Source: Abditibacterium sp. (GTDB lineage Bacteria > Armatimonadota > Abditibacteriia > Abditibacteriales > Abditibacteriaceae). From it: a DNA stretch of 64,000 nucleotides. Location: positions 1,248,001 through 1,312,000 of the forward strand of contig CBDASK010000003.1 of the NCBI GenBank assembly GCA_965199495.1, in the 5' to 3' direction. Both the position numbers and the translations under genes were made by a program. The notes beneath the pieces were generated by a model that was given only the letters and a program-made list of their open reading frames with translations, was not told the origin of the DNA and did not search any database. Positions 9,499 through 63,061 of this stretch are shown here, in pieces (position 1 is the stretch's first letter; every line of letters starts with the position of its first letter).

Positions 9499-9896
9499 AA
9501 ACGCCCGCACCAATCGCCGCCCGCCACGATGCAGCCACGCCGCGCGACAGCTTCGCGCCCGAAGTAAACCCACGCTTCGATTGGTTCCTCTCCAACCGAA
9601 ACGAAACGGCGCAAACGCCGGTAAAGCACGTCGGGATTTTCGGGATTGTTGCCGTCCACGCTTTCCAATCGGTCGAGCGATTTTAAAATCGCGTCATATT
9701 TCGCGGTTTCGATTTCGACGAGTTCGCCCCAAACTTCGCCGTTATCGCTTTCAATAATCATCGGATATGGCCCCAAATCGAACATTTGCGCGCCGCACAA
9801 TTTCGCATCACGCGAACGCGCGATGGCGCCGCGCAGCAAAGTCGCGTTGGATTCTCCGGCGCGCAGGGTGCCGTAAACGAAAAAAGGCAATTGCAT
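9474..9896 (-). CDS. Gamma-glutamylcyclotransferase (AIG2-like)
   Basis: FFVYGTLRAG, GPYP, VWGEL, LDRLE, AWVY. Confidence 0.85.
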   Translation of the reverse strand: MQLPFFVYGTLRAGESNATLLRGAIARSRDAKLCGAQMFDLGPYPMIIESDNGEVWGELVEIETAKYDAILKSLDRLESVDGNNPENPDVLYRRLRRFVSVGEEPIEAWVYFGREAVARRGCIVAGGDWCGRFQLSEAKS

Positions 9897-9903
9897 CGTT
9901 TTG

Positions 9904-9996
9904 GGTGACGCCGATTTATCGCGTCTAAAACGTCAAATTCGCCGTTACTTGAAAGCAATTCCAACTTTTTAAGACGCGATAAATCGGCGTCTCCAC
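9904..9996. repeat. GTAG-type REP doublet, family A (degenerate)
   Basis: GACGCCGATTTATCGCGTCT ... AGACGCGATAAATCGGCGTC inverted arms; same family as 20945, 30203 and 46020. Confidence 0.8.
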
Positions 9997-10000
9997 GAAA

Positions 10001-10408
10001 TTAAAAGCGCGCAGTTTGGCTCTCTTGAAACGGAAACGCGTTTTCCAGCCATGCCACACGCGGCTTGGTTTGCTTATCGGGCGCAAGCCAAACTTCGATG
10101 ATGTCGAAGCGAATTGTCGTTTCGCTTAACTCGAATTCCATCGTGTAAGCCGTGGCCAAACGGCAAATTTGGCGCTGCTTGGCGGGCGTGACGGCTTCTT
10201 GTGGTTCGCCGTGGCTGCTGTTGGCGCGCGTCTTGACTTCGACAAAACAAATCGTATCGCCGAATTGAACGATTAAATCAATTTCGCCGCGCACGCTTTT
10301 GAGCGAACTGCGCCAGTTTTTATGTAATAATTTGGCGCCACGCGAAACCAAAAACGCGGCGGCGATAGTTTCGCCGTCGCGTCCGGTGATGTGTCTGGGA
10401 TCGGTCAA
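10001..10408 (-). CDS. yraN: YraN family endonuclease (UPF0102)
   Basis: GRDGETIA..FL, NWR, GEIDLI, FVEVKTR, EAVTPAKQ, RFDII. Confidence 0.9.
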   Translation of the reverse strand: MTDPRHITGRDGETIAAAFLVSRGAKLLHKNWRSSLKSVRGEIDLIVQFGDTICFVEVKTRANSSHGEPQEAVTPAKQRQICRLATAYTMEFELSETTIRFDIIEVWLAPDKQTKPRVAWLENAFPFQESQTARF

Positions 10409-10422
10409 AAGTTGAACTCGGA

Positions 10423-11485: not shown

Positions 11486-12220
11486 TCATCCTTCGACCAG
11501 CAATTCGCTGGCGTTTTTGAACGAGAAGCGCTCTTGTTGCGCGGCGGTTATGGCGCTGTCGCGCGCCATGCCCAGCGCGGCGACGGGACTAAAACGGCCC
11601 CAGCCCGAACTCCACGCCACGCGGCGCTCGCCCAGAGTTTGCATCGCGCTGGCGATCACGTCGCGTTCGGTAAAGGAGACAACCGGCACGAAAACCGTAT
11701 TGACGACTTCCTTAATCGCGACCGCCGCCATGCGCGTCAGTTCGACGGTTTGCGGGGCAATCGCGAATTTGAGCGCGCTAAATTCGCGCGCCGCCGCCAC
11801 TGCCGCTTCCAAGTTGGCGGGCGTCGTGGCTGTGAGCATCACCGGGCGCGAATAGCGGCGCAGCGCGTTCAAAACGTCGCGCCCGCCCTGACTGGTGATG
11901 AGGTCGGCGTCGGTTTTCTGCTCGATTAAAGTGCCACAAAAGCGTGGCTTGACCAGATACAAACGCGCCAACTCACCCGACAAATCGGGGCGATGAATCG
12001 AGGCAGTCATCCACGCGCGAAAGCGTTTGTCGCCGCGCGTGTGTTCGGCCAAATAGGAGTTGCCGCCGACCAGATCGAACGAGGCGAAAGGCGCTGAAAA
12101 ACAGAGCGCCTCGAATTGGCCCTGCTCGGCGTAGGCGCGGGCAGCAGCCACGTCGGGCGCGTCCAGAGCGCGGGTGTCGGGCGTTGTGCCCAGATAACAG
12201 TGAAGGTCAATGCGAGCCAT
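11486..12220 (-). CDS. Amidohydrolase-2-like TIM-barrel protein (degenerate)
   Basis: IDLHCYLG N-terminus, GERRVAWSS, FKNASELL; paralog-like to the adjacent gene. Confidence 0.6.
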   Translation of the reverse strand: MARIDLHCYLGTTPDTRALDAPDVAAARAYAEQGQFEALCFSAPFASFDLVGGNSYLAEHTRGDKRFRAWMTASIHRPDLSGELARLYLVKPRFCGTLIEQKTDADLITSQGGRDVLNALRRYSRPVMLTATTPANLEAAVAAAREFSALKFAIAPQTVELTRMAAVAIKEVVNTVFVPVVSFTERDVIASAMQTLGERRVAWSSGWGRFSPVAALGMARDSAITAAQQERFSFKNASELLVEG

Positions 12221-12248
12221 AATTCAGATGTCGGATTTCGGATACGGT

Positions 12249-13123: not shown

Positions 13124-14659
13124 ATGTCACTTGCCACGCGCCCTTATCTCATTGAGGAATATACCACGACCGTTTGCCCGCACTGTTTCGCCGACGGGCC
13201 GCTCCGCAGCGACGGCGATGTTTGGCGCGATGGAATGCTCGTCGCGCAGGACGGCCAAATCTGGATGCGCCGGTTTTGCGCGCAACACGGCGAAACCGCG
13301 TCGCTTTATGAAGAAGATGCCGAAATCTGGCGCGCGCGCCGTGGCTGGAGTGCAGCCACGTCCACCGTCACGCCCGACCGCGCCGACAATTTCCGGGGTT
13401 TTCCCGATGGCTATCGCGACGGTTTGCCCGCTTCGCACGGCCAGCACACCTGCATTTTGCTGCTCAATATCACGCAGCGTTGCAATTATTCGTGCCCGAC
13501 TTGCTACGCCGATGCGCTCAAGCCAGGCACGGCGAAAAACTCGCCCGAATTGCCGACATTGGACGAACTCGATCACACGATTGACACGATGCTGGAACGC
13601 GAAGGCGGCAGGTTGGGTGTGCTGATGCTTTCGGGCGGCGAGCCGACTTTGCGCGACGATTTGGAACAGATTATCGAACGCGCGCTCTCCAAAAATATTA
13701 CGCGTGTTTTGATTAACACCAACGGACGCCGCATCGCGCGCGACGCGAAATTTGTCACAATGCTCGAACGGTTTCGTGACCGCATCGAGATTTATTTGCA
13801 GTGGGACGGGCCAAACGGCGACGCCGCGCTGCACCATCGCGGCGAAGATGTGCGCGACGAAAAAACGCGCGCGTTGAAAGCGATTGGCGACGCGCGATTG
13901 TGGTCAACACTGGTGATGACCGTGGCGCGCGGCGTCAACGATGGCGATGTCGGCGCGGTGTTGCAGTTGGGTTTGAACACGCCGCGATGCAGCGGCATGG
14001 CGATTCAGCCGATGTTCGGTTCGGGCCGCAACGCCGGTTTCGATCCGAATAATCGCGTGACGCCGACCGGCATTACGCGCCGCATGGGCGAGCAAACCGG
14101 CGGTTTGGTAACGTGGGAAGATTTTCTGCCGTTGCCCTGTTCGCACCGCGATTGCTGCGATATTTCGTATTTGCTCCAGACGCGCGACGGAAGTTGGAAA
14201 AGTTTGCCCCGTTTAATCGGGCGCGATGAACTGCAAAAATGGCTGCATTTGGTTTCCAACACGATTTCGTTCGAGTCGGTTTCGAGCGGCGTGGCTGATA
14301 TGCTCAAAAGCGGCGCGATTGCGCGCGTGTTTTCCGAAAGCGGCAAAGTTTCGGGCCAGCAAATCGTCGCCGATATTTCCAATATGTGCGGCTGCGTCGC
14401 CGGTCTGCCCGAAATTCTGGGCGCGATCTGGAATCGCGAAAAAGCGTTGGATAAAATGGCCGAGAAAACCTTTCGCGTCACGGTCAAACAGTTCATGGAC
14501 GCGCACACTTTCCACGAAGCGCGATTGCGCCAATGCTGCGTTCACACCGGCACGTTTGAGGAAGACCCGAAACGTTATTCGTTTTGCTGGCGCTATCTGT
14601 TCGACGACGCCGACGATTTTCCGGCGCGCGAAAACGTGATTAGTCTGGAGGCGGTTTAA
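13124..14659 (+). CDS. Radical SAM protein, Tes/GDGT-MAS (MJ0619)-like family
   Basis: N-terminal CPHC...CAQHG metal site; RS motif CNYSCPTC; SGGEPT; NTNG; YLQWDG; RGVND; PLPCSHRDCC; C-terminal QCCVH...SFC. Confidence 0.8.
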   Translation: MSLATRPYLIEEYTTTVCPHCFADGPLRSDGDVWRDGMLVAQDGQIWMRRFCAQHGETASLYEEDAEIWRARRGWSAATSTVTPDRADNFRGFPDGYRDGLPASHGQHTCILLLNITQRCNYSCPTCYADALKPGTAKNSPELPTLDELDHTIDTMLEREGGRLGVLMLSGGEPTLRDDLEQIIERALSKNITRVLINTNGRRIARDAKFVTMLERFRDRIEIYLQWDGPNGDAALHHRGEDVRDEKTRALKAIGDARLWSTLVMTVARGVNDGDVGAVLQLGLNTPRCSGMAIQPMFGSGRNAGFDPNNRVTPTGITRRMGEQTGGLVTWEDFLPLPCSHRDCCDISYLLQTRDGSWKSLPRLIGRDELQKWLHLVSNTISFESVSSGVADMLKSGAIARVFSESGKVSGQQIVADISNMCGCVAGLPEILGAIWNREKALDKMAEKTFRVTVKQFMDAHTFHEARLRQCCVHTGTFEEDPKRYSFCWRYLFDDADDFPARENVISLEAV

Positions 14660-18092: not shown

Positions 18093-19292
18093 ATGCTCAT
18101 CAAAACCCAAAAACAGCTCGATGAATTAGTCGCCAGCCTCACAGCAGCCACGGCGGCGGGGGCGCCCCTCGCCTTCGATACCGAGTTTTTGTCCGAGAAG
18201 CGTTATTACGCCAAATTGTGTTTGGTTCAGGTCTTGGCGCCGCTCGAAAACGGCGGCGTTGTCGAAGGCGCCGTTGATCCGTTTGGCCTCGATTTAACCG
18301 CGTTGGCCGCGATGATTGCCGACCCGAATATCGTGAAAATTGTGCATTCGGGTTCGGCGGATTTGCTGATTTTGTGGCAATTGTTCCAAACGCAGGCGCG
18401 CAACGTTTTCGATACGCAAATCGCGGCGGCGTTTTTGGGTTACGGCCACCAAATCGGTTACGCCGATATGGTGCGGCGCTTCACCGGCGCGCAGATTTCC
18501 AAGACGATGCAATATACCGATTGGAGCGTGCGGCCACTGTCGGACGAGCAGATCGAATATGCGATGGACGATGTGCGTTATCTGCCGCCGATTTATCGCG
18601 ATTTGACTGAGCAATTGCAAGCGCGCGGGCGTTTGGAATGGGCGCAATTCGAGTTCGAGCGCGCTGAAAACAAAGCGACGCGGCCCGACGATGACGAAAA
18701 CGCCTATTTGCGTTTGAACTTGTCGAAACTCAAGCGCAAACAGATCGCGGTTACGCGCGAGTTGGCGAAGGTGCGGCAACAATTGGCGCGCCGTGACAAC
18801 AAGCCGCCGAGTTTCATCGTGCCCGATTTGGCGCTGTTACAGATGGCGCGCCAACAACCTGATTCCGTCGCCGATTTGCGCGCGATTCGCGGGATGCCCG
18901 GCGTGCCCGAAAAAATCGCCAACACTTTATTGGATGCCATTGACGACGCGCTCGAAACCGACCCGGCGACGTGGCCGCCTGCCCGCGAAGACACGCGGCC
19001 CGATCCGCGCTTGGAATCGATTACCTCGCTGATGGGCGTAGTAGCCACGGCGCGCGCCACGAGCGAAGAAGTCTCGCGTTCGTATCTGGCGCCGCGCGAA
19101 GCCGTCAACGATTTGGCGCAATGGTGGCTCGACCGCGCGGCGGGACAAAAAGTCAGCGACGTTTCCGAGCTGGAAATCATGCAAAGTTGGCGCGGCGAAA
19201 TTTTGGGCGCCGATTTACTCAAGTTGCTCGACGGCGAAGCCGTCATCGCGCTCGATGCCGCGACCGGTTTGCCGCAATTGCGCGACGCGTAA
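18093..19292 (+). CDS. rnd: Ribonuclease D
   Basis: AFDTEF...YYAKLCLVQ, FDTQIAA, TDWSVRPLS.EQIEYA.DDV, HRDC domain. Confidence 0.9.
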   Translation: MLIKTQKQLDELVASLTAATAAGAPLAFDTEFLSEKRYYAKLCLVQVLAPLENGGVVEGAVDPFGLDLTALAAMIADPNIVKIVHSGSADLLILWQLFQTQARNVFDTQIAAAFLGYGHQIGYADMVRRFTGAQISKTMQYTDWSVRPLSDEQIEYAMDDVRYLPPIYRDLTEQLQARGRLEWAQFEFERAENKATRPDDDENAYLRLNLSKLKRKQIAVTRELAKVRQQLARRDNKPPSFIVPDLALLQMARQQPDSVADLRAIRGMPGVPEKIANTLLDAIDDALETDPATWPPAREDTRPDPRLESITSLMGVVATARATSEEVSRSYLAPREAVNDLAQWWLDRAAGQKVSDVSELEIMQSWRGEILGADLLKLLDGEAVIALDAATGLPQLRDA

Positions 19293-20105: not shown

Positions 20106-20903
20106 ATGAAAATAATGACCTGGAATGTGCGTTGCCAGAACGCAACCGACAACGCCCGTGGCTGCGGCTGGGCCGCCCGCGCCGAAACGTTGTGCGGGAT
20201 TATCAACGCGCAAGCGCCCGACGTTTTGACGACGCAGGAAGCCTACGCGCCGCAAATTGACGATTTGTGCGCTGCCCTGCCCGACTATCAAATGGCGGGC
20301 ATCGGGCGCAACGATGGCGTCCGCGAAGGCGAATTTTGCGCGATATTCTTTCGCGCCGACCGCTACGAACTGCGCGCGCAAAGCACGCGATGGCTGAGCG
20401 AGACGCCCGACGAACCGTCGTTTGGCTGGGGCGCGCACTGCATTCGCATCGTGACCAAAGTGCGACTATTCGACCGCGAAACCAAACGCGAATTTGAAGT
20501 TTGGAACGCACATTTCGATCACGCCAGCGACTTGGCGCGCCTCGAAAGCGCGCGTTTGTTGCGGCGCGGCATCGAAGCCCTCGACGCGCCCGCGATTTTG
20601 TGCGGTGACTTCAACAGCGCGCCCGACGACGAACCGTTGCTGGCTTTGACACAAAACAACGGTTTGCGCGATTCGCGTTTCTATAGCGAGCAGCCACCGC
20701 GTGGCCCACACGCGACATTTTGCGGATTTGCCGACTTTACCGACAGAATAGACGCGCCAATTGGCGGCGACAAAGCGCGCATTGATTACGTTTTGACCGA
20801 CGATAACTGGCACATCGAAAGCTACACCGTCATGCCGACCGACGAAAACGCGAAGCCGGTTTCAGACCACCGTCCGGTTATTGTCGAATTGGAGTTGCGT
20901 TAA
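20106..20903 (+). CDS. EEP family protein, copy 2 (tandem paralog)
   Basis: TWNVR, TQE, GIGRNDG, NAHFDH, GDFN, RIDYVL, SDHRPV. Confidence 0.9.
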   Translation: MKIMTWNVRCQNATDNARGCGWAARAETLCGIINAQAPDVLTTQEAYAPQIDDLCAALPDYQMAGIGRNDGVREGEFCAIFFRADRYELRAQSTRWLSETPDEPSFGWGAHCIRIVTKVRLFDRETKREFEVWNAHFDHASDLARLESARLLRRGIEALDAPAILCGDFNSAPDDEPLLALTQNNGLRDSRFYSEQPPRGPHATFCGFADFTDRIDAPIGGDKARIDYVLTDDNWHIESYTVMPTDENAKPVSDHRPVIVELELR

Positions 20904-22244: not shown

Positions 22245-22994
22245 TTAACGCTCCTTCTCCCATTCCAACGCAAGATGACGATTATTAAATTCATCGTCGT
22301 CCAAATCGCCGCGATTGAAACAACGCAAAATTTCGTCCGAATTGGCCGCGCGCACCGGCTGGCCGTCGGGAATCAAAGCGCCCGCCGCCATCATGCGCAT
22401 CAGGCCGTTGAAGATGGATTGCAAACCTTCCAGTTCGTCGGGGCGCGCATCGCGGCACGATAAATCGGGGCGCCCAAATAATCGCATCCCGCGCGTATGC
22501 AGCCACGTCCACCCGTCGTCCTGCGGCGTCACCAAAATAATCGCGTGATCTGTCGGCTCGAAACCGGCGCCGAAGAATTGGTCGCGCCATTCGTGCGCAC
22601 TAAAAACGCTTAAAATTTGCGGCAGAAACACCGCGACGCCGCCACTTTCCAGACTCGCCGCGACAACGCCGATTGTATCGCGCAGATAATCGAGCGAGTT
22701 AGGATCGGTAATTTCGCCTCGAATCACGAGTTTCTGCGGCGCGTCCAACGCGATTTGCCATGCGGTCTGATTCGATTGGCGCGCCAAATCGGCCATCGCG
22801 CCGTTCCAAGCGGCGCCGTTGTCGTTGGGCGTAATTTGCGCGATAAGTTCGGGTGGCAAACCCGCCGAATTGTGTTTAGCCGCCGAGACTTGCGTTTCTG
22901 TTTTGGCCCAATCGCCATAAATTTCGATCCAAACCAAAGCATCGCCGCCGCCCGATTGATAACGTGGGCGCGGCCAAGAGAATAATTGGGGCAC
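22245..22994 (-). CDS. Hypothetical protein with DUF4261-like C-terminus
   Basis: WLHTRGMRLFGRPDL, DDEFNNRH; start uncertain (GTG 22994 avoids overlap with the divergent gene). Confidence 0.55.
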   Translation of the reverse strand: MPQLFSWPRPRYQSGGGDALVWIEIYGDWAKTETQVSAAKHNSAGLPPELIAQITPNDNGAAWNGAMADLARQSNQTAWQIALDAPQKLVIRGEITDPNSLDYLRDTIGVVAASLESGGVAVFLPQILSVFSAHEWRDQFFGAGFEPTDHAIILVTPQDDGWTWLHTRGMRLFGRPDLSCRDARPDELEGLQSIFNGLMRMMAAGALIPDGQPVRAANSDEILRCFNRGDLDDDEFNNRHLALEWEKER

Positions 22995-23051: not shown

Positions 23052-23930
23052 ATGATTGCCCCCTCTCTTCTCGCCGATTTGCAACAGCGAATCAACGCCG
23101 CCGACTTGAGCAGCCACGCCGACGCCATTCTCGCCACGGCGCGCCCCGCAGTTGATCTAATTTTGGATGGCCCATTGAGCGGCACGCTGGGCGAAACACG
23201 CTTTGGCGGCACGCCCGATTTGCCCGCCGATGTGGATTGGCCGCGCAACGAAGACGGCGAAGCGCTGACTTTTCTGGCGCAAATCAATTTGAGCGAAATC
23301 TCGGCATTTGATGGTAATCCTCTGCCCGCGCGCGGCTGGCTTTACGTTTTTATCGGATTGGACGAACCCGCCAGCGATGTCGAAAACTTAATTTTTCTGG
23401 TGGACGGCGATACGCAATTGGTGGCGACGACAGCGCCCACGCAAAGCGAGTGGGCCAACGATGAAAATTATGTGGATATGCCCGCGCAAAAGCTGCGATT
23501 GGCGCTCTTTGCTGATATTCCACGCTGGGCAACGCAGGACTTTTATGACTTGGTTCAAGCTATCGAACCCGACGAAGACGAGGCCGATGAAGTCGAAAGC
23601 GATTTGAACGATCTGGGCGGCAACTCGCACGACGCGAAAAGCATCGGCCAGTTGCTCGGCCACGCGAGCGGCATTGGCCACGACAGCCGCGAAGACGCGT
23701 TTGTCGTGCGCGAAATCGGGCCACAATATATTTACGATTACGCGCACCGCCAAACGCTCGATATAACGCGCGCCCGAAATTGGATCAATCTGCTGCGCCT
23801 CGAATCGTTTCGCGAAGGCGAACACGATTTTTGCGTGTGGGACGCGGGCTATTTTAATTTTCTGATTCATCGCGACGACATGAAAAAACTCGATTTCAGT
23901 CGCGTTTACGCGGCGGTCGAAACCAGTTGA
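23052..23930 (+). CDS. DUF1963 (YwqG-like) protein
   Basis: TRFGGTPDLP...WP, LTFLAQINL, LPARGWLYVF, WDAGYFNFLI, LDFSRV. Confidence 0.8.
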   Translation: MIAPSLLADLQQRINAADLSSHADAILATARPAVDLILDGPLSGTLGETRFGGTPDLPADVDWPRNEDGEALTFLAQINLSEISAFDGNPLPARGWLYVFIGLDEPASDVENLIFLVDGDTQLVATTAPTQSEWANDENYVDMPAQKLRLALFADIPRWATQDFYDLVQAIEPDEDEADEVESDLNDLGGNSHDAKSIGQLLGHASGIGHDSREDAFVVREIGPQYIYDYAHRQTLDITRARNWINLLRLESFREGEHDFCVWDAGYFNFLIHRDDMKKLDFSRVYAAVETS

Positions 23931-24801: not shown

Positions 24802-26063
24802 TCCAAACGCAAAACTCGGTTACCAGCGCGCAATTCGCCCAGCGTCGTTTCGAGCCAGCGCAACCACGAAATCACCGAAATCGCGCGCCGAGGAACAGTG
24901 TCGCCTGTTAGTGAAGTGTGTTTGTCAATCGAAGCAGCCACGGCGGCTTTGTTAATTGTGCCATCGCCCTTTAGCGCGCTTTCGAGGGCGCAGCGAATCA
25001 CCGGTTGGCGCAGCAGATTGGCGATCATTTTCTCTTGCCGCTCGCCCGCCGAAAGTTCGATATACGCGCGGCCTTCGTCGGTCAAATTGTAGCCCTGAAT
25101 CAAACCCATTTGCTCGGCGGCGCGGCGATAATAACTGCTCTGGCGCTCCGAGAAATCGAAGGCGCCCGCGATTTTTCCGCTATCGTCACAGCCCGCCGAG
25201 ACTTGCAACGGGAAGTCAATGACTTTGGCGAAATCATCGGCTTGCGGCACTTCCCACGGCTGCGTTGTGGCCACGACGGGCGTAATTTTGAGCCATTCGC
25301 CCAATGTGCGCGGTTTGTTTTCAGGAAAATGGACGCGGAAATGTTGGCTACTGCAAACCTCAATCGAGCGATATTGCTGCGGGTCGGCAAAGCGATATTC
25401 GTGAAACGAATTGACGCCGCTCGTGCCGTTGTAATTGAAGAAAAACAGTCGCACGCGTTTGCCGAAACGCTCCAGATAAACCCGATAAGGAAAGTAAATC
25501 TGGCGAATTAAAAAGTCTTGCGGCGTCGTATTTTTCGCCTCGAACAAAATGATTTCGTCGCGCGTTTCGTAGCCTTGGTCAACTTCGTATTGAATGCCTC
25601 GCGCCGAAAATTCGCCCAAATCGCCGACGCGATAATCGAAATGCGGCGCGAAACGGCGCCCGCGAATCGTCGCAAAAATCTCGTCTGTCCCGATAATTTG
25701 CTCGATGAGTTTGCACTGAAACAACCGATCTAACTGGCTCATTTCGCTGGTCGCATCGCGCAGCGAAACCAAGGGAAACGGAAATTTCGCATCGAAATCT
25801 TCAACATCGGCGCTCTTAATCGGTGGCAAATCGCAGTAACCGTCTTCGCGCAATAAAAGATATGAACCGTTGGTTTCGGGCAGCAAAAACAAGCCGTTTT
25901 CGCGCAACGCTTCGGGCCGCGCGCCGCGCGCGTCGAACTTGGTCATCAGCCGTGGCTCCTGTCCGAGCGCCTTGAAATCCGCCGAACACAAGCGATTGAC
26001 CGGGCGCGATAAATCAATCAAATTGGACGCGACAATCTGTTTCCAAGCTTGATCGCGCGTCAT
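24798..26063 (-). CDS. Putative restriction endonuclease
   Basis: EPRLMTKFD, QYEVDQGYE..IILFEAK, FLIRQIYFPYR, VPQADD, RQSSYY; RBS GAGGTG then ATG 26063; downstream of a DNA methyltransferase. Confidence 0.65.
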   Translation of the reverse strand: MTRDQAWKQIVASNLIDLSRPVNRLCSADFKALGQEPRLMTKFDARGARPEALRENGLFLLPETNGSYLLLREDGYCDLPPIKSADVEDFDAKFPFPLVSLRDATSEMSQLDRLFQCKLIEQIIGTDEIFATIRGRRFAPHFDYRVGDLGEFSARGIQYEVDQGYETRDEIILFEAKNTTPQDFLIRQIYFPYRVYLERFGKRVRLFFFNYNGTSGVNSFHEYRFADPQQYRSIEVCSSQHFRVHFPENKPRTLGEWLKITPVVATTQPWEVPQADDFAKVIDFPLQVSAGCDDSGKIAGAFDFSERQSSYYRRAAEQMGLIQGYNLTDEGRAYIELSAGERQEKMIANLLRQPVIRCALESALKGDGTINKAAVAASIDKHTSLTGDTVPRRAISVISWLRWLETTLGELRAGNRVLRLE

Positions 26064-27057
26064 AAATAGCACCTCGAATTAACAAGTAATACGACGGAAA
26101 GATAAACGATAATAAGTAAGATAACCATTTACCCCCCCCCCCCCCCCCCGTCACATTATTATTACATAAAGCGCGAGTTTTCAAGGTTTCGTCTTCCATG
26201 CGTTTTTGTCCTAATTCGAGATATTCGCTTTCCAATTCAAAGCCGACGAAGCGGCGGCCCAGACGAGCAGCCACGGCGCCGGTGGTAGCGCTGCCGCAAA
26301 ACGGATCGAGAATTAAATCGCCGGGTTGGCTCGATGAGCGAATGATGCGGTCGAGCAAGATTTCAGGTTTTTGCGTGGGATGTTTGCCGAAGCGTTTTTC
26401 CCATTTCGCGGGCGCCGGAAGTTTCCAGACCGATTGCATTTGTTTGTCGCCGTTGTCGCGTTTCATGGCGGCGTAGTCGAAATAATGTTTGGCTTTGGGA
26501 GTTTTGCGCGCCCACAACAAAGTTTCGTGCGCGTGCGTGAAATAGCGACACGCCAGATGCGGCGGCGGATTGGTTTTGTGCCACGCGATGTCGTTGAGAA
26601 TTTTGAAGCCCAAAGTTTGCAGCGCGAAGCCGACGCTGAAAATGTTGTGATTGGTGCCCGAAACCCAGATCGCGCCGTTGGGCTTGAGCAGACGGTGACA
26701 CTCGCGCAGCCAGTTCATATTAAAAGCGTGAATCTGCTCGAAAGTCGCGGTTTTGTCCCACTCGCCTTTGTCCACCGAAACCATGCGCCCGTTTTGGCAG
26801 GTGATGCCGCCGCTCGACAGAAAATAGGGCGGATCGGCGAAAATCAAATCGAAGGTTTCGGCTTTAGCGCGGTGCAAAAGTTCGAGTGCGTCTCCCTGAT
26901 ACAAACGCAAGCCACGGCGCGCGTCGAGCCAATGCGGTTCGGGATTGTTTTGTGCGACGGCGGCTTTGATTTCGGGCGCGAGATTGGAATATGGCTCGAA
27001 TAGCGTGACGGAAAGTCCGAGATCGGGATGAATTTGGGTTTGGGGCGAATTGGGCAA
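26014..27057 (-). CDS. N6/N4 DNA methyltransferase, beta class (DpnA-like)
   Basis: FADPPYFLS, MVSVDKGEWD, WVSGT.HNI, HPTQKP, LDPFCGSATT; C-terminal tail contains the G18 tract. Confidence 0.9.
   Translation of the reverse strand: MPNSPQTQIHPDLGLSVTLFEPYSNLAPEIKAAVAQNNPEPHWLDARRGLRLYQGDALELLHRAKAETFDLIFADPPYFLSSGGITCQNGRMVSVDKGEWDKTATFEQIHAFNMNWLRECHRLLKPNGAIWVSGTNHNIFSVGFALQTLGFKILNDIAWHKTNPPPHLACRYFTHAHETLLWARKTPKAKHYFDYAAMKRDNGDKQMQSVWKLPAPAKWEKRFGKHPTQKPEILLDRIIRSSSQPGDLILDPFCGSATTGAVAARLGRRFVGFELESEYLELGQKRMEDETLKTRALCNNNVTGGGGGGKWLSYLLSFIFPSYYLLIRGAIYDARSSLETDCRVQFD
26132..26149. repeat. C18 (G18 on coding strand) homopolymer
   Basis: 18 consecutive C in AT-rich context within the methyltransferase 3' end. 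Confidence 0.9.
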
Positions 27058-27808: not shown

Positions 27809-29137
27809 TTATTTCAGGTTGAGTTGGTCTACGATGCGAAAACCCGGCGCGCTTTTACGCGCGATTGCGATGGCCAGGTCTCTCTGCGCCTTAGTTTTCG
27901 TCGTGCCACGCAGAACGACAGTTTTATTGTCGAGCGTTGTATCAACATTAATCTGTGAACCGCGCAACGCGGCATTCGCGGCCAAAGCGGTTTTAATTCT
28001 GGGCGTCACAACTGCCGCGTTTGCCGAGTTGCCATTGAATTTGCGTTTGCCGAAATCAAACGGCGGCGCGAATTGGTCGCTCAGAGCGCGGATGCGAAGC
28101 CAATCGGTTTCGCGTTCGCGCTTGACGTGGCCGTCGAGATAAGCCACGGCGCGCGTGCCATCGGGCGCGGGCGAGGCTTCGTAGAAAGCGACGATTTGTG
28201 AGACAGCATCAAGGCTTGCCAGAGCGCGTCCCGATAGGTTGAGATTGGGCCGATAAATCTCGCGCGTCGTTGGGTGCGCGAAAAGTTCTTGAGCTTTCAT
28301 ATACGGCCCCAAGACCTGTTGAACAGTGCCCTGATTCATTCCATAGACATCTACCTTTTTGATGTCAGCCATGCTTTGCGACGAGCGCATCGGCGGCAAT
28401 TTTTCGTCGTAATCTTGCGTATATTGCAGCAACGCCAGACCGATTTGTTTGAGATCGGAATCCACGCGACGATTGATGGCATCGCCGGTCAACTGCGCGC
28501 GCGCGGCTAACGCTTGTTTGTCCGCGCGCACTTTATCGGTTTCTGTGACGACTTTAATTAAATCGGTTTTCGGCTCGAACGCGCGAATATCGCCCAAACC
28601 GTCAATTGTGCGCACGTTGAGCAAACACAAATGGAGAGTTTGCGTCGAGAACAGGTGCAAATATCCGTCTGTCGCCTCCGAATCTTCAAATGATTCTGAC
28701 AAGAGATACTGGTCTGGATTTGTCGAATTAGTCGCGACATCCACATCGCTGGCATTTTCAATGGCGCTGTAAGGTGGACGATTAAAAAGGCGCGTGCGAT
28801 AAGTGACCAGAAAAGTTTCGTCGCCAACCGTGAGCGTTTCACCTTGCGTCAGATAAGAATAAGCATTGCCATCTTCGCTTGCTTCGGACGCAAATTTAAA
28901 GTTGGTATCGAGCGATTTACTGATTTTAAACCGCCGCCAACTCCCATCCAATTCTTGCGTCGAAAGTGTGAGCGGCGTATTTCCGTTCGCCAACGCCGCT
29001 TGCAACGGCGCCGTGGCTGCATTGTCGGCGGCGGCACCGAAAGCGGCGTTTTGCGCCCAAACCGGCGCGACAAAAGAAAGTCCGGCGCCCAACAAAAGTG
29101 TGGAGCGCGCGGCGCTGGTGCGAGTGAGAAATAACAC
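27809..29137 (-). CDS. Secreted protein with DUF1559-like domain and C-terminal BON domain
   Basis: Signal peptide ending VWA-Q; SDLKQIGLALLQYTQDYDEKLP; AYLDGHVK; ALRGSQINVDT...VVLRG...IVDQL. Confidence 0.7.
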   Translation of the reverse strand: MLFLTRTSAARSTLLLGAGLSFVAPVWAQNAAFGAAADNAATAPLQAALANGNTPLTLSTQELDGSWRRFKISKSLDTNFKFASEASEDGNAYSYLTQGETLTVGDETFLVTYRTRLFNRPPYSAIENASDVDVATNSTNPDQYLLSESFEDSEATDGYLHLFSTQTLHLCLLNVRTIDGLGDIRAFEPKTDLIKVVTETDKVRADKQALAARAQLTGDAINRRVDSDLKQIGLALLQYTQDYDEKLPPMRSSQSMADIKKVDVYGMNQGTVQQVLGPYMKAQELFAHPTTREIYRPNLNLSGRALASLDAVSQIVAFYEASPAPDGTRAVAYLDGHVKRERETDWLRIRALSDQFAPPFDFGKRKFNGNSANAAVVTPRIKTALAANAALRGSQINVDTTLDNKTVVLRGTTKTKAQRDLAIAIARKSAPGFRIVDQLNLK

Positions 29138-46114: not shown

Positions 46115-47185
46115 GAATCGTTCTAATTCAAACGTCTCCAACACCGCTTCGCCGCGCAACACCGCGCCAACAACCAACTCCGCCGTGCGCGGCGCCAGCA
46201 AAATGCCGTTGCGCCCGTGTCCCGTCGCGTAACTCAAATTTTCGATTGGCCCGCGTCCCAAAATCGGCAAACCATCCGATGAAACCGGACGCAAACCCGA
46301 CCAACTCGTTTCGAGCGGCATCTCGGTGACAACCGGCGCCAACGCGCGCGCCGCTTCCAACAACTGCGCCGTGTTTTCGGGCGTCACGCGCTTTTCAAAT
46401 CCGATTTCTTCAACTGTCGCGCCCACGAGCAAACGCCCGTCGCGTCGCGGAATCAGATAACAATGCGCGCCATAAACGATATGATTCAGCAAATGTCCGC
46501 CGCGCAGTTGCAACATCTGCCCGGCGACGGGACGCACCGGCGGCGTGGCTGCATCGGGCAAACCAAAACGTTGTCCGCTCCATGCGCCCGCGCTCAAAAC
46601 GATGTGTTCGATTTCAATTCGCACATCGGCGGTAACTACAGCCACGGTGCGGTCGTTCTCGATTTCGATGCGACGAACCGGCGTATTCTGGTGAATTTCA
46701 ACGCCCGCCATTTCGCACGCCAAACGCAACGCGCGCGTCAAAAGGCGCGGCTCGACTTGTCCATCGCGCTCGAACCAAAAGGCTTCACGTCCGTTCCAAA
46801 AAACAGAATTTGAACCGCTAATTTCTTCGTCGGGAACCATCAAAATTCCCGGTTCGCGCCAATCGCAGGTCGGACTACCGATTTGACAAAGCTCGACATC
46901 AACGCCAGTTAGTTCCAATAATTCGGCGGCGAAAGCGGGATATAAATCGCGCGATTGCACGCATAACTCGAACATCGCATCGCGCATCGCGCGCGTGCCA
47001 CCGAATTGATGAATCGCGGCTTCGGGGCCGGGCGCCAGCATTCCACCCGCCGCCCACGACGCTTCGCCGCCAATTACACCGCGCTCAAACACAGCCACGC
47101 GCGCGCCTCTTTGTGCCAGACGCCACGCGCACGCAAGTCCAATCGCGCCGCCGCCAACTATCGCCACATCGGGCCGATTTCCCAT
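46088..47185 (-). CDS. thiO: Glycine oxidase ThiO
   Basis: GGGAIG, ASWAAGGML, YLIPRRDG, WSGLRP, GHGRNGILLAP. Confidence 0.92.
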   Translation of the reverse strand: MGNRPDVAIVGGGAIGLACAWRLAQRGARVAVFERGVIGGEASWAAGGMLAPGPEAAIHQFGGTRAMRDAMFELCVQSRDLYPAFAAELLELTGVDVELCQIGSPTCDWREPGILMVPDEEISGSNSVFWNGREAFWFERDGQVEPRLLTRALRLACEMAGVEIHQNTPVRRIEIENDRTVAVVTADVRIEIEHIVLSAGAWSGQRFGLPDAATPPVRPVAGQMLQLRGGHLLNHIVYGAHCYLIPRRDGRLLVGATVEEIGFEKRVTPENTAQLLEAARALAPVVTEMPLETSWSGLRPVSSDGLPILGRGPIENLSYATGHGRNGILLAPRTAELVVGAVLRGEAVLETFELERFVETPTCRV

Positions 47186-50717: not shown

Positions 50718-50871
50718 AAGTGCGCGGCGCCGTGGCTGCTGTCATTGGGCCAATGCTAAATATATCACGCCTCGTGCCGCGAAGAATTACGAGAATGTTT
50801 CGCCGCGCCCAAAGACAAAAATTGGCGGATGTAACTTGCCCGAAGAAAGATTGTCGCACACAAGCGAATTT

Positions 50872-52693: not shown

Positions 52694-54481
52694 TTATGCC
52701 TCAAGCGTTCGTTCCAATTGCGCGGCGGCGTCGAACTTCACGTCGTCCAACAAATCGGCGTCCGGCGATGGCGCGCGCGAATCGCCGTTTTCGCCAGTGG
52801 CTTCGGCGCGCAGTTGGCGTTCGATGGCGCGGCCATGCGCCCGCGTGTCATCTATCTGCTGCGAGGCTTCGTGCAACTTCTGTTGCACCGCGTCCAAAAC
52901 CTCGCCGTATTGGCCGAACTCGGCTTTGACTTGCCCCAGCGTGTTCCAAATCTCGCTCGAACGGCGCTGAATCGCGAGCGTACGAAAGCCCATCGCAAGC
53001 GCGCTCAGCGTCGCTGCCATCGCCGCCGGGCCAGCGACGGTCACGCCAAACTCGCGCTGCAAATCGGCGGCTAAGTCGGCGCGGCGCATCACTTCGGCAG
53101 ACAAACCTTCGGTCGGCAAAAACAGAATCGCGAAGCCAGTCGTGTGCGGCGGCCCAATGAAATCGCGGCAGATTTCCTGCGCGTGCGCTCGGATTTGCGC
53201 TTCCAATTGCGCGCCCGCCGCTTCGATTTCGGTTTTGTCGCCAGCTTCGTAAGCCGCCATCAAACGCCGGTAATTTTCCTGCGGGAAACTGGCGTCAATC
53301 GGCAGCCAAACCGTGTCCGGCGCATCATTTTGTGCGGGCAGACGAATCGCGAAATCGGCGCGATTTTCGCGGTCGGGAACAACAGCCACGGCGGCGCCAT
53401 ACTGGTCGGACGCAAGCGTTTGTTCGAGCAAATCGCGCAATGAATCGCCGCTCTTGCGACTTTCTTGAACGTGAACCAAGACGCGATTCAGGTCGCCGCC
53501 ACTGGCCAAAACTTGCACTTCGCCGAGTTCCGCGTGAACCGATTCCAAGCGCTGCGAGACCGTCCGCAACGATTGGCCCAGCCGCTCATCGAGCGTGCCC
53601 GGCGATTTTTCGCCGCTCTGGCGCAACGCTCCCAACTGGCGCGGGTTGAGAGGAACGTTGTCGCCCCCCAACAATTGCAGCCAATTCTCGACAACGCCGC
53701 GCAGCACTTCCGCGCGCATGCCGGAGCGCGTATCGGCGCCCGCAGCGATGGCGTTCATGCGCGCGACGAGCGAATCGAACTGGCCGCGTTGCGCCTCGCC
53801 CAGCGCCCGATTGTGGCTCGCGGCCTCGGTCAGTTGAGCCAACGCCCCTTGCAGTTCCAGACGCATCTGCCGCGCCGTTTCGCCATCGGTCAAACGTTTG
53901 GCATTCCAATTTTCGTCGTTCGCGCTATGCAGCGCTTCCAGACTTTCCATGATCGCGTCGTCGAGCGAGTGCAGTTGACTGGCGCTCCGCTCGCTCAGCG
54001 CCGCCAGACGTTGCTCGAAAGTATCGAAACGTTGCCCCTGTTGCGCCGTGGCTGCGATCACCTGATGCACCAATTCGGCGCGCAGACGGTCGGAGTCGGT
54101 CTGGCTGACATCTCCCAGATTCTCGATTTGATCGCCCAAAACTTTGGCAAAACCACTCAAATTCGCGTTCAACTGCGGCCCCAGCGTTTCGCGCAATGTC
54201 GCGTTTTCGTCCTGCAACGCCAGAAAACTTTCGGCGAGTTTTTCCATCGAAGCGCCAGTTTCGTCGCGCCCGGCGCGCGCCTGTTCATCGGCTTCGCGCC
54301 GATTGACCGACAATTCTTCGCGCACGACGGATTCCAAATGCTCTTGCCCTTTTTGTAATCCGTCGTAAGCCTCTTTCAAAGGAGCCACGTCGGCGGATTT
54401 TTGGCGCCGCCACAACACAAATATCAGCAGCAGAACGAGAGTTTGTAAGCCAACAATGGCGAACAATAAGAGATCGGTCAT
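52694..54481 (-). CDS. rmuC: RmuC-family protein (divergent)
   Basis: N-terminal TM plus coiled coil; VWLPIDASFP, FAILFLPTEGL, GFRTLAIQRRSSEIW. Confidence 0.8.
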   Translation of the reverse strand: MTDLLLFAIVGLQTLVLLLIFVLWRRQKSADVAPLKEAYDGLQKGQEHLESVVREELSVNRREADEQARAGRDETGASMEKLAESFLALQDENATLRETLGPQLNANLSGFAKVLGDQIENLGDVSQTDSDRLRAELVHQVIAATAQQGQRFDTFEQRLAALSERSASQLHSLDDAIMESLEALHSANDENWNAKRLTDGETARQMRLELQGALAQLTEAASHNRALGEAQRGQFDSLVARMNAIAAGADTRSGMRAEVLRGVVENWLQLLGGDNVPLNPRQLGALRQSGEKSPGTLDERLGQSLRTVSQRLESVHAELGEVQVLASGGDLNRVLVHVQESRKSGDSLRDLLEQTLASDQYGAAVAVVPDRENRADFAIRLPAQNDAPDTVWLPIDASFPQENYRRLMAAYEAGDKTEIEAAGAQLEAQIRAHAQEICRDFIGPPHTTGFAILFLPTEGLSAEVMRRADLAADLQREFGVTVAGPAAMAATLSALAMGFRTLAIQRRSSEIWNTLGQVKAEFGQYGEVLDAVQQKLHEASQQIDDTRAHGRAIERQLRAEATGENGDSRAPSPDADLLDDVKFDAAAQLERTLEA

Positions 54482-54639
54482 GAAATTTCTCGATGAAAAT
54501 GAGGTTCTCCAGTATAGCGGCGCGATTTCTATCACACCGTCGCCCCTGTTTCGGATTCAAATCCTACCTCGCAGGTATACTTTGCCCCTCAACGTGCAAC
54601 CCGCCGTGGCTGCAAGGCGTTAAAGGTTAGATTTAGACA

Positions 54640-59412: not shown

Positions 59413-59493
59413 CGTCGAAAACTACTTTTCTCAGCACAAGCACAGACAAAGCGTGCGCGTCTTGTGTTATCTTTAAGCGCGTTCTTGCCTGCA

Positions 59494-61347
59494 ATGACCG
59501 TTTCAACCTCACGCGATTCTTCCGTTTCGACGCCCCATTTTTGGCGCCGGACGCCTCTCGTGTTGGCGATAATTGTAGGCGTCTCGCTATTTCTGTTGTT
59601 GTGGAAATTGGGCAGTTACGGTTTGATTGACGTGGACGAAGGCCGCTATGCCGAAGTGCCGCGCGAGATGTTCATATCGGGTGATTGGCTGACGCCGCGC
59701 CTGAATTACCTCAACTTTTTCGACAAACCGCCCTTGCTTTACTGGGGCATCGCGCTCTCTTACGCCATTTTCGGCGTGACTGAATTCGCCGCGCGCTTGG
59801 TTCCAGCGCTGTGGGCTTTGCTTGGCATCGTCGCGACTTACGCGTTGGGCCGCCGCATGTTTGGGCCGCGCGCCGGATTTTTAAGCGCGATTATTCTACT
59901 CACCTCGCTGATGTGGACGGTGATGGCGCGCGTGGTTTTGACCGATATGGCGGTATCGTCGTTGGTCTTTTGCGCCATCGCCTTTTGGTGGCTGGCCCAA
60001 ACAGCAGCCACGGCGAAGGAACGTACGCGCTGGCTGGCATTATTTTGGATTTCTCTCGGATTAGGAATGCTCGCCAAAGGCCCCGTTGCGCCGGTTTTGT
60101 GCGGCGGCGCGATTTTCGTTTATCTGCTGGTTTGCAAACGCTGGCGCGACTTGCGCCAGATGGGCTGGATTTGGGGCATTCCGTTGTTAATTGCGGTCGC
60201 GGCGCCGTGGTATATCGCGATTGCGGCGCGTCATCCCGAATATAATAACGCGTTTTGGTATGAGCAAAATTTTGGGCGTTTCACCGGTGCTATCAGCAAA
60301 GTTGACCATTCGCACGGGCCGCTATTTCTGCTGCAATTTCTGCCGGTCATTTTCTTTCCGTGGTCGGTCTTCGCCCTCCCCACTTTATTTTACGGCTGGA
60401 AAAAACTGTGGCCGGTTCGCACGCAAAATCAGCGCGCCGCCGTTTATTTGCTGGGCACCGTCGCGTTCGTGCTACTGTTTTTCTCGACCTCGGAAAGTAA
60501 GCTCATCACCTACATTTTGCCGGTCGTGCCGCCGCTCGCGATTCTAATGGCGGCCTACTTCGACCGCTTATTGAGCGCGCCAAAACTCGGAGTATTTATC
60601 AACGTTTGCGGCGGCATTTTCGCGGCGATTCTCATCATCGGTGGCGCCGTGGCTTGGTTTATCGCGCCCACCAAACTCGATGTTAAAGGCGCCAGCGATA
60701 CTATCAGCCACGTCGCCGCGCTCGCGCTGATGATTTGGGGTTTGGCGCTCGCTTTCGCGTTGTGGAAACGCAGCGCGCCCACGTTATTGGGCGCGATGGC
60801 GGGCGGTTACGCGCTCTGTTTCATGGTCGGCATGGCGTTGGTTTCGCAAATACTACCCGGCATCACGACCAAACCGTTGATTGCGCAAATCAAACCGGGC
60901 ATTGGGCCGGACACCGAAATTTTAGCCATCGGATTTTCGCAGAGTTTGCCGTTTTATACCGGCAAACGCATGCGCGTGCTGGGCACGCCCGACGAACTGG
61001 CGCACGCCAAAAAGTATCTTTCGCCCACCGAGCGGAAGCGTTGGTTTTTTCAAATCGCGCCCGATTTGCGGCGCTTGATGCTGAGCGACAAACCCGTGTA
61101 TTGCGTCATTCGGCGCAATAATTTTTTGGGTTACGAACAACGCGCGGCGCTCGCATTAACTCAAACAGAAGGCCAAATTTTCGAGATCGCGAACAATGAC
61201 CGTTTCGTGATTCTTGGAAACGCTGCTGCCACGCAATTGACGCCGCCCGCGCCGGGCGTAGCGGGCTTTGACCAAATGCGTGAGGCTGCCGAGAAACTCG
61301 ATGCGCGCGGGCGCGAACAGCTTTTAGAAAAGGCGAAACAGGATTAA
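59494..61347 (+). CDS. ArnT/GT83-like lipid glycosyltransferase, copy 1
   Basis: DVDEGRYAEVPREM..SGDW.TP, FFDKPPL.YW, EFAARL, LAKGP, SKLITYILP. Confidence 0.85.
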   Translation: MTVSTSRDSSVSTPHFWRRTPLVLAIIVGVSLFLLLWKLGSYGLIDVDEGRYAEVPREMFISGDWLTPRLNYLNFFDKPPLLYWGIALSYAIFGVTEFAARLVPALWALLGIVATYALGRRMFGPRAGFLSAIILLTSLMWTVMARVVLTDMAVSSLVFCAIAFWWLAQTAATAKERTRWLALFWISLGLGMLAKGPVAPVLCGGAIFVYLLVCKRWRDLRQMGWIWGIPLLIAVAAPWYIAIAARHPEYNNAFWYEQNFGRFTGAISKVDHSHGPLFLLQFLPVIFFPWSVFALPTLFYGWKKLWPVRTQNQRAAVYLLGTVAFVLLFFSTSESKLITYILPVVPPLAILMAAYFDRLLSAPKLGVFINVCGGIFAAILIIGGAVAWFIAPTKLDVKGASDTISHVAALALMIWGLALAFALWKRSAPTLLGAMAGGYALCFMVGMALVSQILPGITTKPLIAQIKPGIGPDTEILAIGFSQSLPFYTGKRMRVLGTPDELAHAKKYLSPTERKRWFFQIAPDLRRLMLSDKPVYCVIRRNNFLGYEQRAALALTQTEGQIFEIANNDRFVILGNAAATQLTPPAPGVAGFDQMREAAEKLDARGREQLLEKAKQD

Positions 61348-61348
61348 A

Positions 61349-63061
61349 TTGACACAAACTAAAACACCGATTTGGGGCTGGCCCCTGTTGCTCGTCTTGT
61401 GCGGCATCACCTTTTTTCTGGGACTGGGCGGTTTGCCGCTCGTTGGCCCCGACGAACCGCGTTACGCCGAAATCGGGCGCGAAATGTTCGCTTCGGGCGA
61501 TTGGATTACGCCGCGACTGAGCGGTTATTTATGGTTCGAGAAACCGATTTGGCTCTACTGGGGCGAGGCGATTTCTTATCATTTATTTGGCGTCAATGAG
61601 TTCGCCGCGCGCTTTCCGTCGGCGCTGTCGGCGCTGATTACGGTGGGTTTCGTCGCGTTTGTCGTCGGTAAATTGGTGTCGCGGCGCTGGGGCTTATTGT
61701 CGGGCGGCGTGTTGGCGACCAGCGCGCTGTGGCTGGGGCTGGCGCGCGGCGCCTCGACCGATATGGTTTTATCGTGCTGGATCGCCGTGGCTGTGTTGGC
61801 GGGCCATCTGGCGATACGCTCGGCGGGCAAAGCGCGCACGGGTTACTGGCTTTTGTTCACGTTCGCGCTGGGCGTTTCGATGCTCGCTAAAGGTCTCATC
61901 GGCATTTTGCTGATTTGCTTGATTCTGGGCATTCACCGTTTGTTAATGAAGCGTCCGATTGGCAAATCAATGCGGCGTAATGCGGCGTTGTTGTGGGGCG
62001 GCATCGCCGTTTTCACGCTGACAATCGCCAGTTGGTATGTTCCGGTCACGCTCGCCAACGGCATGGTTTTTATCGACGAATTTTTCGTCAATCATCATTT
62101 CAAGCGGTTTCTGACCAATGAATATCACCATTTGCAACCGCCCTATTTTTATCTGTTTGTGGCGTTTGCCGGATTGTTGCCGTGGCCATTTTTCCTGCCC
62201 GGTGCTTTTGCGCGCCTGAAAAAGTTGGCCGCGCGCGATAGCGAAGGCGGCGAATTATTGTTGCTGGCGTGGGTTTGGGCGATTATTCCCATCGCGTTTT
62301 TCTCGATTTCCAAATCGAAATTGCCCGCCTACATTTTGCCGTCGTTTCCGCCGCTCGCGATTTTGCTCGGCTGGGAAATCGAGCGCATCTGGCGCGGCGA
62401 AATCGACGTTTGGGGAAAAATTGGGCTGGGCCTGACTTCCGCCGTGGCTGCGGTCATCGGCATCGCGTTTGTGGTCGCAGTCTTCAAAGAGAGCGTTGCG
62501 GTGAGTGGGCTGGGATTCATCGGTTTGATTTTGCCGCCGCTCGTTGGCATCGGCGCTTTGGTCGCGTTCTTTCTCAAGAAGCGCGAAGCAGCCACCGGCG
62601 CGACAATGGTCTTGACCGCCAGCGTGATTTTGGCGGCGGCGATGCTATTGTTCCCGCATCTGTCGCACGACCTCAGCCGCAAAGAGCTTTCGGTCGCCGC
62701 GTTTAACGCGCTCAAGCCGGGCGAAAATCTCGTTTATTACAAAAAGGAAAAGGAATACGCGCCGGTCTTTTACGCGCGCGGGCGCGTGATTTTTTATAAG
62801 CAAGTCAACGATGCCAACAAAAAACCGATTCCCGGCAAAAGCACGTTGTTGCCCAAAAACACGCTCACGCCCGGCGACGAAATTGACGCTTTAACACCCG
62901 ACGAATTGAAATTGGCGATTCGCCAATCGCCGACCAAAAGCGTCATCGCGATTACCAAACCCGAAGCCGCCATCGAACTGGCCAGCGCGCCACATTTGCA
63001 GACCGCATTGATTTACCAGCAGGGCAAAGTGATGGCGTTGCGGGTGACTGAGTTGCCGTGA
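61349..63061 (+). CDS. ArnT/GT83-like lipid glycosyltransferase, copy 2
   Basis: GPDEPRYAEIGREM..SGDW.TP, WFEKP, EFAARF, LAKGL, SKLPAYILP. Confidence 0.85.
   Translation: MTQTKTPIWGWPLLLVLCGITFFLGLGGLPLVGPDEPRYAEIGREMFASGDWITPRLSGYLWFEKPIWLYWGEAISYHLFGVNEFAARFPSALSALITVGFVAFVVGKLVSRRWGLLSGGVLATSALWLGLARGASTDMVLSCWIAVAVLAGHLAIRSAGKARTGYWLLFTFALGVSMLAKGLIGILLICLILGIHRLLMKRPIGKSMRRNAALLWGGIAVFTLTIASWYVPVTLANGMVFIDEFFVNHHFKRFLTNEYHHLQPPYFYLFVAFAGLLPWPFFLPGAFARLKKLAARDSEGGELLLLAWVWAIIPIAFFSISKSKLPAYILPSFPPLAILLGWEIERIWRGEIDVWGKIGLGLTSAVAAVIGIAFVVAVFKESVAVSGLGFIGLILPPLVGIGALVAFFLKKREAATGATMVLTASVILAAAMLLFPHLSHDLSRKELSVAAFNALKPGENLVYYKKEKEYAPVFYARGRVIFYKQVNDANKKPIPGKSTLLPKNTLTPGDEIDALTPDELKLAIRQSPTKSVIAITKPEAAIELASAPHLQTALIYQQGKVMALRVTELP

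Follow-up and report, generated by a model that had tools for sequence, protein, structure and literature searches.

Sequence-specific uptake of DNA is established in two bacterial families and has been proposed for the cyanobacterial word HIP1. The closest described systems are the uptake signal sequence (USS) of the Pasteurellaceae and the DNA uptake sequence (DUS) of the Neisseriaceae, which is read by ComP. The present analysis deals with a short asymmetric word, GCAGCCACG in its 9-mer form, which is scattered over a stretch of 64,000 nucleotides (the window) of an Abditibacterium genome. This genome (G000) is made of three contigs of 4.81 Mb in all, and the window corresponds to positions C3:1248001-1312000 of its chromosome, contig C3. 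An earlier inspection of the letters of the window (the sequence-only reading) had noticed the word, had compared it to DUS and USS, and had put forward several checks: a codon-preserving null, strand bias relative to origin and terminus, density in core versus islands, and conservation in related genomes. The word is real, selected and lineage-specific, and is statistically like DUS and USS. From the sequence evidence, we give roughly one chance in two to its being a directional self tag like DUS and USS, which would serve natural transformation and is proper to one Abditibacterium clade.

The word shares with USS an asymmetric core of about 9-12 bp with graded flanks, a density of about one per 1-2 kb, and a mostly genic location on both strands with a frame bias. 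It is also scarce in foreign DNA and lies on less conserved residues, and copies on the same strand exclude each other, as they do in a USS control. The likeness to DUS is found in the dialects, which follow phylogeny, and in the inverted pairs seen after stop codons in two relatives, G035 and G004.

Genome-wide, GCAGCCACG occurs 1,783 times (919 and 864 copies on the two strands) and ranks first among all 9-mers when an order-5 Markov model is taken as the null. Anchoring on AGCCACG (4,533 copies) yields a graded matrix, (a)(g)(c)AGCCACG-B-C-G, the flanks of which hold nothing informative beyond codon periodicity and no AT-rich tracts. The fuller word can be written (GC)AGCCACGNCG, and AGCCACGNCG is found 2,913 times on the chromosome, which amounts to one per 1.62 kb. 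Most of these copies are coding (2653/2913), and short intergenic DNA holds 177 copies, compared with 2.4 expected by base shuffling. Genes were called by an own hexamer model (3,759 on C3), and the best-scoring 3,402 were used in the codon nulls. The excess withstands these nulls: in synonymous-codon shuffles the 9-mer reaches 91.4 ± 7.8 copies for 1578 observed, the 10-mer 125 for 2617 and the 12-mer 25 for 1195, a 17-48-fold excess with all six frames enriched. A null preserving dicodon use given the protein, which is itself inflated by the word, still gives 530 copies of the 9-mer for 1578 observed, the corresponding null values being 707 and 235 for the 10-mer and the 12-mer.

In the window, 22 perfect copies of GCAGCCACG are present, 13 on the plus and 9 on the minus strand, for a mean of 0.94 and a maximum of 4 in 100 dinucleotide shuffles, in agreement with the single copy that the sequence-only reading had expected from base composition. 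As it had also described, the copies are read in several frames and often belong to a longer form, since 18 of the 22 continue into GCAGCCACGNCG. The 7-mer core CAGCCAC/GTGGCTG is indeed abundant; its count, earlier put at about 50, is in fact 58 (31+27). As for AGCCACGNCG, 42 sites are found in all, 24 of them without the GC prefix.

The origin of the chromosome is marked by dnaA at 2.03 Mb and by parS-like sites at 2.16 Mb, and the strand of KOPS-type words (FtsK orienting polar sequences) changes around 2.0-2.3 and 4.3 Mb. The word itself is not polarised in this way, with 1447 of the 2913 copies (49.7%) on the leading strand of the same chromosome in which KOPS is polarised, and its orientation does not switch at origin and terminus as would that of KOPS or of architecture-imparting sequences (AIMS). 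GC skew is nearly absent in this chromosome despite the polarised KOPS-type words, and is near zero also in a word-less congener, G009. The word is scarce in islands: eight gaps exceed 12.8 kb where 1.1 are expected, the long gaps lie mostly in lower-GC stretches, and the small contigs carry one and two copies for 15 and 40 expected. A long gap also spans the Dpd island at the left end of the window. The lack of a perfect copy there, earlier seen over 6 kb, extends to AGCCACGNCG, which is absent over 10.7 kb ending at window position 8736, for about 6.6 copies expected from the genome mean. Native DNA carries the word about once in 1.6 kb, and DNA of recent acquisition lacks it.

The most distinctive property of the word is its spacing. 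Pairs on the same strand are depleted, with an observed/expected ratio (O/E) of 0.09 at 12-50 bp, 0.21 at 100-300 bp, 0.36 at 400-600 bp, 0.81 at 800-1000 bp and about 1 beyond 1.5 kb, whereas pairs on opposite strands stay at about 1.0 at all distances. Permutation of the strand labels gives the same picture, since only 65 of 361 pairs are same-strand at 60-400 bp (null 177.5 ± 9.3) and 281 of 826 at 400-1000 bp (null 407 ± 14). Two control words cluster rather than exclude, and a generic purging of direct repeats is ruled out as a cause by 1,151 unrelated 9-mers, the median same-strand O/E of which is 1.31. Variants of the AGCCACCG type are repelled, while those with core changes at G2, C3, C4 or A5 mostly are not. 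The exclusion test therefore delimits the functional set of word variants, and the AGCCACGNCG sites without GC are counted in this set because the exclusion includes them. For a widened word set, the gaps on each strand have a median of 1.8 kb and a coefficient of variation of 0.71. Same-strand exclusion is also observed in G011 (130 sites). This strand-specific exclusion, which acts up to about 1 kb on the same strand and leaves the opposite strand independent, is new here; no description of a same-orientation spacing exclusion was found in the literature, of which older USS-spacing papers and supplements could contain one.

A control was drawn from metagenome loci with inverted USS pairs (77 listed). 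Loci shorter than 8 kb or with fewer than 0.3 USS per kb were set aside, and from the 41 retained four overlapping ones were dropped, leaving 37 non-redundant loci (638 kb). For single USS at 60-400 bp, 12 of 42 pairs are same-strand (null 20.7 ± 3.2, p=0.0045), with no effect beyond 400 bp, and none of the six 7-mers tested among 111 eligible ones is depleted. This result overturns strand exclusion as an argument against DUS or USS; same-strand exclusion appears, on these modest numbers, to be common to the word and USS. It hints that the biology of uptake sequences includes a directional step so far unrecognised, and the exclusion offers a cheap quantitative test for any hyper-abundant word. 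A strand preference for single-stranded DUS is cited in PMC12061091.

Insights into how copies arise were obtained from 184 gene pairs between G000 and word-less congeners, in which 118 word sites align. Gaps at these sites (17/118) show no clear excess over the background of 0.09, and the word itself is found in the congeners at one of the 118 sites. The sites lie on less conserved residues (amino-acid identity 0.53 vs 0.62), a pattern reported for USS in PMC2817400. G011 still has the word at 28 of 40 sites, G004 at 25 of 175. Four-fold degenerate positions within it are identical to G011 in 120 of 129 cases, compared with 0.75 elsewhere, so that conservation at silent sites is above background in this relative; with G004, which has a different dialect, the identity is 0.61, below the background of 0.70. 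These alignment and four-fold-site results indicate that copies arise by point substitution at tolerant positions and are then kept at silent sites, with turnover when the dialect shifts.

The word is confined to one Abditibacterium clade. CAGCCACG is enriched in three of 401 phylum genomes, namely G000, G004 and G011, which form a clade (support 100/100) amid word-less congeners in an rpoB tree of 410 columns and 22 of the 27 family genomes (G002, G003, G005, G008 and G240 being left out). The dialect of G004 is shifted to ACACCAGCCACGTCCTA, often in inverted pairs, 49 of 52 of which lie outside open reading frames (ORFs). A de novo search was run on samples of 3-200 kb of the family genomes (less than 7 kb for G162, G248 and G274, and 4.5 kb for G240). 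Seven other genomes of the family bear different words, which are palindromic or paired after stop codons: the palindrome CGAGTACTCG in G062 (1.1/kb), G129, G162 and G248, GCAAGTACTTGC in G120, CCAAAGTACTTTGG in G274, and in G035 a half-site of 11 bp, arranged mostly in head-to-head pairs (its 9-mer numbers 3,173 copies). The inverted pairs of G035 fall within 80 bp after a stop codon in 36 of 44 cases, for 4% at random. Such inverted pairs are described as a hallmark of DUS and USS in bioRxiv 10.1101/2025.10.24.684340, PMC3630211 and PMC7811141. No word was found in the samples of 16 family genomes (4.5 kb for G240), and G001, outside the sampled set, was negative for three patterns. In g1 and g10 genomes AGTACT hardly occurs (5 copies in 5-6 Mb), yet in g11 and g13 it reaches about 1/kb. 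That the AGCCAC and AGTACT words derive from a single source was considered and dropped: the resemblance is only visual, and on the tree it would imply a transfer or repeated losses. The dialects of the family may have more than one origin. Inverted pairs of the G000 and G004 types gave no match in viral scans; a 58-kb viral contig carries 37 half-sites of the G035 type in 51.6 kb, about the host density. A search of the literature on Abditibacterium motifs or Armatimonad uptake sequences found nothing relevant.

The self-tag reading is favoured by the codon-independent enrichment, the lack of polarity, the depletion in islands, the lineage restriction, the dialects, the inverted pairs of the relatives and the spacing shared with USS. 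Its mechanism can be pictured as follows. The reader would be a DNA-binding part of the type IV pilus/ComEA/ComEC pathway, or else a factor that acts on the single strand as it enters, and would favour fragments in which the word has a given orientation. Biased uptake and recombination would then spread fresh copies, as a molecular drive. Within about 1 kb of an existing copy, another one on that strand would bring no benefit and would not accumulate, while a copy on the opposite strand would serve the other strand or direction. The relatives might meet the same two-strand need through self-complementary words, or through inverted pairs doubling as terminators. The occurrence of such a word in the Armatimonadota, with word-less sisters and with palindromic or paired dialects nearby, provides ready-made comparisons through which gene profiling could find the reader.

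Several observations weigh against this reading. The DUS/USS comparison of the sequence-only reading passes the sequence-level tests, but no receptor was found: ComP_DUS (PF16732) matches in none of five genomes, in a search which matched no control either. The genome does encode a complete set of competence genes, with pilB, pilT, pilC, pilD, minor pilins, comEA and comEC identified by Pfam, and dprA and comF by motif regular expressions only. Its pilus cluster comprises pilB, pilT, pilC, pilD, four pilin-like genes and two PilX-like genes of 1,300 amino acids (aa). However, ComEC and ComEA occur in all five genomes tested, word-bearing or not, and the pilus-tip gene in 25 of 27 family genomes. 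The presence of comM and yraN in the window, which had been offered as a hint of uptake and is correct as such, is not evidence, because ComEC, ComEA and the pilus-tip gene are also found in word-less relatives. The PilX-like tip genes, in tandem at G000:C3:872853-880963, are family-wide and often in several copies; their product has no Pfam family and no sequence match in the Protein Data Bank (PDB), and its model (pLDDT 47) no fold match. As a reader it was set aside for want of an identifying match, the only lead being an Atlas one to PilX_N/DUF4900.

The word also differs from the described systems. It belongs to another phylum and has another sequence than USS, lacks AT-rich flanking tracts, and shows an exclusion about three times longer (about 1-1.5 kb, for about 400 bp in the USS control). 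Unlike DUS, the G000 copies are denser in coding (0.68/kb) than in non-coding DNA (0.30/kb) and are rarely paired, close inverted pairs being intergenic in only 21 of 85 cases; the family dialects include perfect palindromes. The USS control is small, and its contigs were assigned by motif and a 40% GC content alone. In G004, same- and opposite-strand depletion look alike once the pairs are collapsed, with few single copies left. The strand effect is unexplained by binding at the cell surface, because the uptake of USS is reported to be orientation-independent in PMC1939737. Finally, the word clade lost AddAB on the same branch that bears the word.

This coincidence keeps alive the main rival, a Chi-like signal, which we regard as unlikely. 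In it, a translocating enzyme of an alternative break-resection pathway would stop, or load RecA, at the oriented word; two-ended breaks or incoming linear DNA would need both orientations independently, with no replichore bias. Like Chi, which is read by RecBCD or AddAB, the word is asymmetric, orientation-dependent and depleted in foreign DNA, and its G-rich strand CGNCGTGGCTGC loosely recalls Chi. The word is longer than Chi and far more enriched. Neither the leading-strand polarity of Chi nor a cognate RecBCD/AddAB is present in G000: no RecB/AddA/AddB-type gene was found, PF12705 matching only a 299-aa ORF and a Dna2-like gene. The product of the latter (1421 aa; G000:C3:4111365-4115630, minus strand) combines PD-(D/E)XK and SF1 helicase parts, with DNA2 as best PDB match. 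In G011 (contig C5) the match to this gene is split in two and includes an internal stop, from an assembly error or a broken gene. Within the genus the pattern is perfect: AddA is present in 10 of 13 congeners and missing exactly in the three word-bearing ones, which alone carry the Dna2-like gene. In the rpoB tree the word clade is nested within AddAB genomes (support 93/90), AddAB and the word coincide in none of the 27 family genomes, and the Dna2-like gene is present as well in G035, the half-site of which is asymmetric. A benefit set by the distance to the next oriented site would fit the near-linear way in which the density of same-strand pairs rises. Distant relatives of the window in one lichen and one rock metagenome have also been listed on this side.

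Outside the genus, the correlation breaks down. The Dna2-like gene is present in 22 of 401 phylum genomes, its relatives forming about 22 clusters at 64-100% identity and then a widespread unnamed family at about 42%. Among the eleven positive genomes sampled outside the clade, G035 has a word and ten have no dispersed word in samples of 40-100 kb; conversely, six word-bearing genomes lack the gene. The Dna2-like protein is neither necessary nor sufficient there, and was rejected as a general reader. The word as a replacement of AddAB across the family was rejected too, since AddA is absent in 14 of 14 genomes outside the genus, seven of which have neither AddAB nor word. The genus pattern is that of a single branch, hence a single coincidence, known Chi sites are strand-biased according to PMC5861425, and USS shares the same exclusion. 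RecJ, present in all five genomes tested, is uninformative and was not kept as a discriminating reader. A bolder proposal, which we also consider unlikely, would unite the two views: the word would be read strand by strand by a machine outside the known DUS/USS receptors, arisen on the branch of AddAB loss and Dna2-like gain. It would be a self tag which both favours the cell's own incoming DNA and stops its degradation, palindromic (HIP-like) and asymmetric (DUS-like) family words being two solutions to one two-strand need. Classical USS would have this directionality in common with the word.

A strand signal of replication or repair is more doubtful still. The word would serve for priming or re-priming, or would guide mismatch repair as a methyl mark on a single strand, and each template would need one at intervals of about 2 kb. 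Okazaki fragments and repair tracts have a scale like that of the 1.8 kb per-strand gaps; mutS and a probable mutL were recognised by regular expressions, and the near absence of GC skew has been counted in favour. The skew is, however, near zero in word-less G009 as well, and leading and lagging counts are equal though origin and terminus are defined by KOPS, dnaA and parS. No archaeo-eukaryotic primase was found in five genomes by a search in which archaeal controls matched, and such a primase was rejected as reader. The graded matrix of the word is unlike a strict methylase site. Two profiled methyltransferases do not track the word: that of the window has orthologues (71-75%) in four of the five word-less congeners searched, and the distribution of an orphan one does not follow the word either. 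Two others adjoin restriction enzymes. One of these, beside mutS, was discarded as half of an MjaI-family restriction pair; this restriction-modification pair lies directly behind mutS (G000:C3:2187698-2192266), and the C-terminal stretch of its methylase is nuclease-like (SNase).

Still less probable is a HIP1-like word that a ratchet of methylation or repair would have produced and that would have little selected function. HIP1 also occurs about once per gene in coding DNA, and the AGTACT palindromes of related genera, true palindromes at about 1/kb, look HIP1-like; the strong avoidance of their GTAC core in most g1 and g10 samples hints at a link to modification or restriction. In contrast, the G000 word is asymmetric, palindromic words being found only in other genera, and no matching methyltransferase was found in the search for one. 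Strand-specific exclusion would not be expected from a ratchet, and conservation at silent sites implies continuing selection or drive. HIP1 has itself been linked to competence in PMC13756078.

It is highly improbable that the word is bound as duplex DNA by a protein of the nucleoid, of partition or of occlusion, or that it merely results from codon use, from mobile repeats or from direct-repeat purging: the relatives' palindromes recall dimer-binding sites, and the G004 pairs end in GTAG like repetitive extragenic palindromic (REP) elements, but duplex binding should exclude both orientations alike (opposite-strand O/E about 1.0), the codon nulls fail, flanks are not shared and no hairpin or stem excess is seen, and the unrelated 9-mers speak against purging. 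REP/REPIN or another mobile repeat was likewise rejected on the coding location, the substitution origin and the lack of stem excess. Codon, repeat and deletion origins are largely refuted, and the word departs from Chi, KOPS, HIP1 and REP in the features compared. Explanations other than an uptake tag, a Chi-like signal, a replication or repair signal and a ratchet are together left with a slender share of the probability.

Other repeated words were met in these genomes. Repeat-derived words such as GTAGAGACAC are also abundant genome-wide in G000, and another word, ATTTATCGC(G), is strongly paired with copies on the opposite strand (O/E 9-21) and is probably an inverted-repeat element. The chromosome avoids palindromes extremely (CTAG at 0.04 and GTAC at 0.11 of expectation, many 6-mers at 0.01-0.1). 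In G009, a repeat with about 214 one-strand copies at C1:2.5-2.6 Mb is probably a long CRISPR array.

The 21 copies of the 9-mer listed by the sequence-only reading are all correct in coordinates and strand, and one more had been overlooked, at 20157..20165 (minus). On the plus strand, the 12-mer form is found at 9531..9539, 12144..12152, 18144..18152 (in the RNase D gene, read as AAT), 23110..23118, 24934..24942, 26267..26275 (within a DNA methyltransferase gene), 30042..30050, 39709..39717, 42625..42633 (mutY) and 60004..60012. On the minus strand, it is found at 10210..10218 (within yraN), 29012..29020, 33855..33863 (fabD), 46544..46552 (thiO), 50731..50739, 54047..54055 (rmuC-family gene), 54605..54613 and 62443..62451. 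The copies at 50731 and 54605 are intergenic, outside called genes, as had been noted. The NCG tail is missing from the overlooked copy and from those at 13352..13360, 22499..22507 (outside called genes) and 34267..34275 (fabD), all three on the plus strand. The AGCCACGNCG sites without the GC prefix start, with their strands, at 8737-, 11822-, 12546+, 13337-, 14287-, 14991-, 16206-, 19043+, 21392+, 22112-, 26910+, 28142+, 29783-, 33420+, 39267+, 41552-, 44997+, 48591-, 53384+, 54383+, 55425+, 60645-, 60706+ and 61783-.

The word-free stretch of the window (1..8736), part of the 10.7-kb gap, holds the Dpd island (dpdD, dpdA, dpdB) and comM, with a single 7-mer core at position 699. The comM/YifB gene (6336..7883, minus strand, NCBIfam) has no copy inside. 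Also on the minus strand are yraN (UPF0102) at 10001..10408 and the gene of an N6/N4 DNA methyltransferase at 26014..27057. The Dpd genes, at 1-5592 and upstream, are the end of a larger word-poor region, which spans roughly 1.12-1.26 Mb of C3 and includes several large genes for helicases and methylases. At 20943-20976 lies a short multicopy element, over which read depth rises 20-40-fold in two metagenomes, with varied flanks.

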